This document shows positions 5,975-7,036 of a stretch of 64,000 nt of DNA, piece after piece (position 1 is the stretch's first letter; every line of letters begins with the position of its first letter). The notes under the pieces are model-generated. The model was given only the letters and a program-made list of their open reading frames with translations, was not told the DNA's origin and searched no databases. A program made the position numbers and the translations under genes. Source of the DNA: Candidatus Saccharimonadales bacterium (GTDB lineage: Bacteria > Patescibacteriota > Saccharimonadia > Saccharimonadales > DATKHC01); the NCBI GenBank assembly GCA_035510465.1, contig DATKHC010000021.1, positions 130,876 through 194,875 on the forward strand, in the 5' to 3' direction.

Positions 5975-7036
5975 CTAGTCGAGTATGTCAAGGATCTGAT
6001 ATAAAAATCTCCTGTGGTAGCGAATAGGCTGGTGGTGCTTGATTAGGGCATGATAACTAGAGATATTGAGATGGTCAAGATTTTGGTCTATTCGTTGGCT
6101 AACTCTAGGGGCTAAACGTCTACCAGACGGCCATAATTCAACACCCAGGTAAGCTAGTTTACTCCTGACAGGTTGTATCCTATCGTGCAGAGGGTTTATC
6201 TGTAGCCGTAGTTCATCAGTGAGGAATTGGGTCACAATTATTTGGGCTTCGCGCGCTAGTAATTCGCTCTTACACCACAGTACAAAATCATCCCCATAAC
6301 GTACGTATCCCATTGGCTTTATGCTATGAAGCACAAATTGATCAAGTTCATTGAGGTAAATATTGGCGAAAACCTGGCTGGTCAAATTGCCAATGGGGAT
6401 ACCTGTCTGTCTGTCTGTCTGTCTGTCTGTCTGTCTGTCTGTCTGTCTGTCTGTCTGTCTGTCTGTCTGTCTGTCTGTCTGTCTGTCTGTCTGTCTGTCT
6501 AATAGACGCTGACAACCGTCGATTACTTCGTCAAGTAGTTCCAGTGCTTTCGGTTGGAGTAATTTAGTTCTTAGCAATTGCTTCAGGATAGTGTGGTCAA
6601 CAGAATCAAAAAATTTGAGAATATCGCTGCGCCATAGCCAGCCATCTTTGTACTTTATAAAGTTTTGTTGAGTACGTTTAATAGCTCCATGTAGGCCTTT
6701 ATTCTTGCGGCAGCTCCAAGCATCATAACAAAATGATTTATCCCAAATTGCTACTAAATAATCATAGAGCAAACGATGTACTACCCTATCACCTACTTCA
6801 GCTACAGATATCTCGCGTCTTTTAGGATCAAATAAGGTAAAGCTGTGGTACTTACCGTGTTTATACGATCCGTCCTGCAAGCAATTAGATAGCTTGAGTA
6901 GGTTGCTGGTTAGATTGTATTTATAAAGCAATATATCTGGTGAAGCTCGCTTACCTACGTTAAAAGCTTGCCAGGCTCGCCAAAAGCTTGTCATACTAAT
7001 GTCTATGTCAAAATCTTTAGATGCCACATTATCCAT
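5975..7036 (-). CDS. DGR reverse transcriptase carrying an in-frame (DRQT)8 insertion
   Basis: YGDDFVLW catalytic motif, and GIPIGNLTSQVFANIYL, which is the DGR-type [IL]GxxxSQ motif. The TR/VR pair is adjacent. The start could be M15 (6994). Confidence 0.9.
   Translation of the reverse strand: MDNVASKDFDIDISMTSFWRAWQAFNVGKRASPDILLYKYNLTSNLLKLSNCLQDGSYKHGKYHSFTLFDPKRREISVAEVGDRVVHRLLYDYLVAIWDKSFCYDAWSCRKNKGLHGAIKRTQQNFIKYKDGWLWRSDILKFFDSVDHTILKQLLRTKLLQPKALELLDEVIDGCQRLLDRQTDRQTDRQTDRQTDRQTDRQTDRQTDRQTGIPIGNLTSQVFANIYLNELDQFVLHSIKPMGYVRYGDDFVLWCKSELLAREAQIIVTQFLTDELRLQINPLHDRIQPVRSKLAYLGVELWPSGRRLAPRVSQRIDQNLDHLNISSYHALIKHHQPIRYHRRFLYQILDILD
6403..6500. repeat. Tetranucleotide microsatellite (CTGT)24 + CT inside the RT ORF
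   Basis: Uninterrupted ctgt run read directly from the sequence. It encodes DRQT x8 just upstream of RT motif 4. Confidence 0.95.

Follow-up and report, generated by a model that had tools for sequence, protein, structure and literature searches.

Why does the gene of a mutagenic reverse transcriptase (RT) carry, in the middle of its catalytic domain, a long and perfect tetranucleotide repeat? The question is raised by a 64,000-nucleotide stretch of a Candidatus Saccharimonadales bacterium (contig DATKHC010000021.1 of assembly GCA_035510465.1, positions 130,876 to 194,875 of the forward strand), which we call the window. It holds a diversity-generating retroelement (DGR) with a repeat tract inside its RT gene. 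To our knowledge, DGRs are the only known prokaryotic system for targeted protein hypermutation. They are especially common in Patescibacteria, and how such a mutator is restrained from overwriting a beneficial variant is poorly understood in the field. As judged from its sequence and from its relatives, the tract is probably a simple-sequence contingency switch in the RT gene of a functional-looking Patescibacteria DGR, and would toggle mutagenic retrohoming ON and OFF.

The repeat tract and its frame logic

A first-pass annotation of the window had described an uninterrupted 98-bp CTGT run at 6403-6500, lying in frame within a DGR RT and adding (DRQT)x8 right before motif 4. Tandem Repeats Finder (period 4, 24.5 copies, 100% matches, no indels, score 196) and the raw sequence agree on this perfect array, and translation of the open reading frame (ORF) confirms the frame and the peptide. 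The gene and the tract are arranged as follows, in window coordinates.

5975..7036, minus strand: DGR RT ORF, 353 aa, in frame as assembled (Pfam RVT_1, E = 1.5e-13)
6501..7036, minus strand: RT half upstream of the tract, with the N-terminal extension, fingers, motifs 1-3 and the first catalytic Asp (FFDSVD) (from translation and alignment)
6403..6500, minus strand: tetranucleotide tract, the proposed slipped-strand switch; (CTGT)24.5 on the plus strand, (AGAC)24+AG on the coding strand, encoding (DRQT)x8
5975..6402, minus strand: RT half downstream of the tract, with motif 4 (GIPIGNLTSQ), motif 5 (YGDD) and the thumb (from translation and alignment)

The eight DRQT copies abut GIPIGNLTSQ on its N-terminal side. 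No other long simple repeat is present in the 64-kb window, where the runners-up are 3-unit tetranucleotides and 5-6-unit trinucleotides. Chance or a low-complexity artefact was rejected as the source of the tract, given its perfection and the orthologous flanks seen elsewhere.

The tract has the makings of a contingency locus, being a perfect repeat of hypermutable length inside an ORF, with a unit size not divisible by three. When the RT was translated in silico with 20 to 28 units, a full-length protein was obtained solely at 21, 24 and 27 units, that is, at tract lengths of 14+12n nt. With every other unit number, translation stopped 6-18 codons past the tract, ahead of motif 4 with its template and dNTP contacts, of the catalytic YGDD and of the thumb, and the out-of-frame tails read RQVSPLAI or TDRYPHWQFDQPGFRQYLPQ before the stop. 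The product of any OFF frame is thus limited to the half encoded by 6501..7036, and the half encoded by 5975..6402 is lost. The simulated series supports the earlier claim that unit changes other than multiples of three truncate the RT before YGDD, and in silico the unit number toggles between a full-length and a truncated product.

From the established behaviour of such tracts we infer that slipped-strand mispairing at replication would add or remove CTGT units here, and would do so reversibly. According to translation and the structure model, in-frame growth would do no more than extend a surface excursion between motifs 3 and 4, with every three units adding four residues. At other lengths, the truncated RT would presumably make no cDNA, and the variable region (VR) of the target gene would be frozen. 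Reversible slippage would then yield a heritable mix of cells, in which those with the hypermutator ON explore receptor variants and those with it OFF keep a successful one. Rescue of the OFF frames by transcriptional or ribosomal slippage was set aside as implausible for 4-nt units.

The reverse transcriptase and its insert

The closest solved structure to the window RT is the Bordetella bRT (8ub7; sequence E = 1.5e-29, TM-score 0.74/0.79). The window RT has the hallmarks of the DGR clade, with a motif 4 (GIPIGNLTSQ) of the form [I/L]GxxxSQ and a catalytic YGDD of the form YxDD. The insert encoded by the tract sits between motif 3 (FFDSVD) and motif 4.

Two checks proposed by the first-pass annotation were carried out on this insert. 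The first was a comparison with orthologous RTs without the tract. Homologues of the window RT are ~320 aa long and have a short linker in place of the 32 residues, and the linker before motif 4 varies widely in length across the family. The second was a structure model, built with AlphaFold2 (AF2) from 106 sequences. Its predicted local distance difference test (pLDDT) score is 92.7 overall and >90 outside the insert. The insert itself scores 62-87 and is drawn as a helix extended outward, followed by a loop. Decay of the window RT into a pseudogene was rejected, as all motifs are intact and the AF2 model reaches the pLDDT given above.

Recurrence of repeats at the same loop in relatives

For the survey, each GTDB species was represented by a single genome, and 80 loci with relatives of the window RT, nearly all from Patescibacteria, were examined for simple repeats in the stretch before motif 4. 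The loop just before motif 4 carries a simple repeat in 22 of the 80 loci. Tetranucleotides dominate, with 13 of the 22: (AGTC)17, (AGAC)3/6/8/16/17, (CCAG)15, (AAGC)9/14, (CAGT)17, (AGCC)12, (TCAG)4 and (GTCA)23. Six loci have dinucleotides, (GA)6-13 and (TC)16, and the remaining three have runs of G10-13. At the protein level, (EQNRT)n peptides in P0076 and P0296 have a period from which a (GAACA)n pentanucleotide is inferred, and an (HT)n peptide is also among the protein matches. The closest relatives of the window RT, at 59-67% identity, include three with (GTCA)n tracts (L067, L075 and L083).

The position of these repeats is specific. In the 563 kb of the survey loci, 20 of the 25 long simple repeats fall in the loop, which makes up ~1.4% of the sequence (binomial P ~7e-33). 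Even among the five outside the loop, four lie inside or immediately beside the RT gene. Two are in the N-terminal half of the RT, (AC)13 at L041:4361-4386 and (TC)19 at L063:2804-2841. The other two are G-runs, G12 ~40 nt upstream of the RT start (L078:3950-3961) and G10 just after the RT (L065:5086-5095). Such RT-associated repeats outside the motif-4 loop may be alternative switch positions.

As a control, we used 80 RT loci from viral contigs, of which 79 are phage-type (28-36% identity to the window RT) and one is Patescibacteria-type (L086, 51% identity). A loop repeat was found in none of the 79 phage-type DGR RTs. L086, the sole Patescibacteria-type RT of the set, has (AGAC)24.5, a tract of 98 nt.

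The peptides encoded by the repeats are unrelated across lineages (DRQT, VSQS, ASQP, KQAS, RE, SL, G, EQNRT), and repetitiveness alone is conserved, which argues for selection at the DNA level. In the Patescibacteria-type DGR RT clade, a simple repeat in this loop is a recurrent feature, and apparently one that has been maintained convergently.

ON and OFF alleles

Both in-frame and out-of-frame alleles occur among the relatives. The N and C halves of the RT were aligned separately to each of the 80 loci. In five of them (L067, L071, L072, L075 and L079) the two halves are in different frames, and in each the shift lies exactly at the tetranucleotide tract, with each half otherwise forming one intact alignment. 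These five represent 5/22 of the repeat-bearing loci and 5/13 of those with tetranucleotides, against 0/58 frameshifts in the repeat-free loci (Fisher P = 0.001 for 5/22 versus 0/58).

Further OFF alleles are L083 and L169. The latter has (AGAC)6, 25 nt, on an 820-kb Patescibacteria contig with 49x coverage (ERZ650162), and was seen in four assemblies. In the same locus (L169:1-6630), the OFF-frame DGR lies among genes resembling those of type IV secretion or conjugation (TraG P-loop, TraC-like, TrwB, M23 peptidase). Truncated N-terminal proteins with the predicted out-of-frame tails were also found (P0152, P0154, P0198, P0253, P0267, P0279, P0289 and P0296). The 90% cluster of P0039 holds both forms, with two members at full length (336 aa) and two ending in RERERDEVPR and a stop.

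Near-identical lineages also differ in repeat number. In L084 the (GA)17 tract leaves a 336-aa RT, and one unit more, (GA)18, reduces that of L085 to a 190-aa stub. These contigs, from two assemblies (ERZ4903072 and ERZ27254767), share 99.6% identity. In the P0132 cluster, L166 and L168 have (AGTC)7 and a 325-aa RT, and L167 has (AGTC)5 and ORFs of 192 and 105 aa; these contigs (assemblies ERZ27248668, ERZ27249030 and ERZ27250223) are 97-98% identical. Homologous loci show ON/OFF polymorphism in repeat number, (GA)17/18 and (AGTC)7/5, as contingency loci do.

The second lineage also informs on the activity of the element. The template regions (TRs) of L166 (490-620) and L167 (1168-1298) are identical, and their VRs (85-215 and 763-893, respectively) differ from each other at TR-adenine positions only. 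Therefore, this DGR has been diversifying since the two populations split, and it follows, on this sequence evidence, that an RT with a repeat-derived insert is likely to work. The same lineage is also polymorphic for RT ON (7 units) and OFF (5 units). The phase-variation role proposed by the first-pass annotation fits this family picture, with loop repeats in about a quarter of the related Patescibacteria RTs and frameshifts solely at tracts.

Weighing the switch against other explanations

Several observations speak against the switch, and there are three rival explanations. The first of these is that the tract is a neutral microsatellite in a permissive linker between RT motifs 3 and 4, and that the OFF alleles are ordinary inactivating mutations in decaying elements. 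The length of the loop is variable even where it has no repeat. OFF alleles are common, as seen above, and this would also be expected if some elements were simply dying. L082, a close relative of the window RT, bears a degenerate remnant of a GTCA tract. The support for switching comes from polymorphism between assemblies of relatives, that is, from allele comparison and not from a reversible rate in a clone or in reads of the window locus. An exact look-up of the window RT protein in an assembly index returned nothing on record, and no relative closer than 67% identity was found in the collections searched. A metagenome scan with the insert-less window RT retrieved two relatives only, at 59% and 65% identity.

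We nevertheless regard neutrality as unlikely. Long simple repeats are nearly absent from the other 555 kb of the survey loci and from the rest of the window. The tracts are free of interruptions, and a single site holds several types of unit across the clade. Where OFF alleles were examined at the DNA level, both halves are intact, and ON and OFF alleles coexist in lineages 97-99.6% identical, one of them with the adenine-restricted VR differences described above. Phage-type DGR RTs share the fold and the loop, yet have no tract.

Selection could instead act on the protein. The repeat peptide beside motif 4 would then be a length rheostat that tunes RT activity, fidelity, or the binding of Avd or RNA, with selection mainly on in-frame length. 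An AGAC tract is present at the orthologous position (aatt|AGAC...ACAG|G) in seven loci, with lengths of 14, 25, 33, 66, 70, 98 and 98 nt, and in-frame alleles among them span 14, 25, 33 and 98 nt. The 32-residue insert stops three residues short of the equivalents of I181 and G182 of bRT, which contact the template base (bRT structure paper). For the switch this closeness is a drawback, as an RT with the longest-insert allele could be impaired even when in frame. Modulation of protein function has been suggested by Power et al. for some intragenic tetranucleotide repeats of H. influenzae (PMC2651432). A rheostat fits poorly with the encoded peptides, which share nothing across lineages and range from charged (RE) to polar (VSQS), glycine runs and SL, and with an insert that is modelled with low confidence and as a protrusion. 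Furthermore, the units are never multiples of three, and most length changes would destroy the frame rather than tune the length. We consider this explanation improbable as the main one, although it can coexist with a switch. Compared with the switch, the neutral and the rheostat models both account less well for the specificity of site, for tracts that are so pure and for OFF alleles with intact halves.

The third possibility concerns the assembly. A longer or heterogeneous tract could have been collapsed by a de Bruijn assembler, making the unit number uninformative, or, at the extreme, two sequences could have been joined into a chimera. The window tract measures exactly 98 nt, or k-1 at k=99. 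Exactly this length is shared by the tract of the unrelated L086 (51% identical protein), and no longer tract than these two was seen. The true length and frame of the window tract may differ from those assembled, and its unit number and in-frame state may be limited by the assembler. The contig of L077, another close relative, begins exactly at motif 4, as if assembly broke at the tract. However, the tract is real as a feature, because in position and flanks it is orthologous to shorter tracts (14-70 nt), across which the reads of other assemblies safely extend. Both of its flanks also continue one intact RT. The length issue touches the stated unit number and not the mechanism, and it leaves the existence and position of the tract unaffected. 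We see very little room for an artefact as the explanation.

The break in L077 (1-20) suggests that long tracts can break short-read assemblies, so that such RTs may be under-represented or fragmented in metagenome-assembled genomes. The contig of L028 (1-245) starts within the RT, ~180 nt upstream of its (CCAG)15 tract.

The DGR around the reverse transcriptase

The remaining DGR parts are found on both sides of the RT gene.

6999..7355, plus strand: bAvd accessory gene, 118 aa, divergent from the RT and overlapping its start as called (Pfam bAvd, E = 1.8e-12)
5110..5943, minus strand: DGR target gene, 277 aa, with the VR at its 3' end; same strand as the RT and downstream of it
5120..5231, minus strand: VR, with 17 core mismatches to the TR, all at TR adenines
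4766..4877, minus strand: TR, non-coding, downstream of the target gene; a 112-nt repeat of the VR

The bAvd match exceeds the curated cut-off. The target protein has no Pfam family, even at E = 10, and the VR spans the ~35 final codons of its ORF. Because all core mismatches (17/17) fall at adenines of the copy at 4766-4877, this copy is the TR and the one at 5120-5231 is the VR; three non-adenine differences are confined to the two ends. As to the retrohoming signals of DGRs (IMH/IMH* and adjoining RNA elements), a GC-rich stretch of ~20 nt (TCTGCGTGTCCGTCCTGCAG) is identical at the 3' ends of VR and TR, and the sequences diverge beyond it. A second TR-like or VR-like pair was not found in the window, so that 5120-5231 is its sole VR. 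With RT, bAvd, target gene and TR/VR, the DGR is complete and its historical signature of adenine mutagenesis is clean, which makes it functional-looking at the sequence level. Together with the 8ub7 match and the IGNLTSQ motif, the adjoining bAvd and the adenine-restricted mismatches bear out the first-pass identification of the gene as a DGR RT.

The bAvd and RT ORFs, in the form in which they are called, share 38 nt head-to-head (6999-7036), and no intergenic space is left for a promoter. The true start of the RT may be Met15 (MTSFW, at 6994). The relative L001 has the same divergent Avd/RT layout with 31 nt between the two genes, and in L166 an unannotated 81-aa ORF occupies the Avd position, 64 nt from the RT.

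Five large serine recombinase genes are present in the window, at 7360-8961 (minus strand), 15411-17138, 31795-33357, 39220-40716 and 55705-57321 (all plus strand). One of them is directly beside the DGR, and in L166 a serine recombinase lies 1.2 kb from the RT. DGRs of this type may ride on integrative elements. Inversion of Avd and RT by the neighbouring recombinase was also considered and is not supported, as the divergent layout is found in L001 as well. Judged by the relatives of its RT, the host belongs to the Patescibacteria (CPR). The window also contains chromosomal genes, namely tRNAs, genes for purine synthesis, a trehalase and an ABC transporter.

The window has further features. 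Just downstream of the TR, a 119-nt imperfect duplicate (2939-3057 and 3869-3987, 73% identity) encodes paralogous small ORFs. Its neighbours are a PLD-like nuclease gene and a PIN-domain toxin, the latter with a small ORF upstream of it (3161-3412) (region 3161-3805 and 3986-4486). Periodic direct repeats of 45-56 nt with spacings of 162-744 nt at 443-1558 resemble a repeat within the coding sequence of an ORF that lies at the edge of the window. At the other end, 60371-63601 on the minus strand encodes a UvrD-family helicase of 1076 aa with an inserted intein, the Pfam Intein_splicing match falling between its N and C helicase domains.

Comparison with known systems

The closest analogues of the tract are the contingency loci of Haemophilus and Neisseria, such as lgtC with (GACA)n and lic with (CAAT)n. 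These also have a perfect intragenic tetranucleotide tract, of about 5-38 units, in which a one-unit slip changes the reading frame and yields a truncated protein. Their unit number differs between strains, as seen here at homologous loci. In H. influenzae, tetranucleotide tracts with units including GACA, AGTC, AGCC and GCAA change length at ~1e-4 per generation (PMC2651432). The units GACA, AGTC and AGCC are common to Haemophilus ORF repeats and the loop tracts described here, and AAGC is a rotation of GCAA (PMC2651432). The classic loci differ in their setting. They are usually located near the 5' end of genes for surface structures, whereas the DGR tract lies in the middle of its gene, where it encodes part of a loop in the catalytic domain of a cytoplasmic enzyme. 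They also belong to host-adapted Proteobacteria with many such loci per genome, whereas in these environmental Patescibacteria hardly any long simple repeat other than the tract is present in the region.

The modA phasevarions, in which a Type III methyltransferase gene carries (AGCC)n or (AGTC)n, are similar in having a repeat-based ON/OFF switch in an enzyme gene, with secondary consequences across the population, and in tract length. One modA phasevarion is ON with 22 AGCC repeats and OFF with 24 (PMC4525171). The effect there is on the methylome and regulon, whereas here the enzyme is a mutagenic RT and the switch would gate targeted hypermutation of one receptor gene.

Switches of mutator genes are known as well, through tandem-repeat variation in mutL and prophage excision at mutL. 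For an ATTA repeat at mutM in H. influenzae biogroup aegyptius, Power et al. raise a possible control of the mutation rate (PMC2651432). In these cases too, a gene that helps to determine the mutation rate is under the control of a hypermutable or switchable sequence. They act on genome-wide rates, whereas the window tract would gate a site-directed diversifier.

Among DGRs, the element shares with that of Bordetella phage BPP-1 (bRT/Avd/TR/VR), and with the DGR set of the Patescibacteria (Candidate Phyla Radiation), which has the B3 architecture, the RT fold and motifs, the Avd gene and the adenine-specific TR/VR mismatches. The difference from canonical DGRs is the tract itself, as no simple repeat has been reported in their RT, in line with its absence from our phage-type control loci.

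The first-pass annotation knew of no description of DGRs controlled by simple sequence repeats, and our full-text literature search found none either; the main paper on Patescibacteria DGRs (Paul et al. 2017) lay outside this search and could mention a repeat tract in a DGR RT. Such a tract is not mentioned in the large DGR survey of Wu et al. (PMC5758913), in the 2024 DGR survey or in the bRT structure paper. A classic contingency switch would thus sit in a target that is so far unreported and of conceptual interest, and the arrangement is evidently widespread within a single large radiation of bacteria.

Implications for Patescibacteria and their DGRs

Beyond the single locus, we lean towards the view that Patescibacteria have repeatedly equipped a single permissive loop of their DGR RTs with hypermutable simple repeats, whose units are mono-, di-, tetra- and pentanucleotides. 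The result would be a two-tier evolvability device, in which a stochastic, heritable and reversible ON/OFF switch gates a targeted hypermutator, and one hypermutation mechanism controls another. This would extend the biology of contingency loci from host-adapted pathogens to environmental ultrasmall bacteria.

There are also practical consequences. RT genes split by a tract get annotated as pseudogenes or break assemblies, and DGR surveys probably under-count or mis-score them. Metagenomic reads would give the fraction of ON cells, through the repeat lengths that they contain, for comparison with VR diversity.

Slippage switching of the RT would be a simple and directly testable genetic answer to the question of mutator restraint. 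If it operates as proposed, episymbiotic cells would alternate between exploring variants of a surface receptor and locking in a successful one, a natural way in which DGR mutagenesis would be held back once a useful variant exists.

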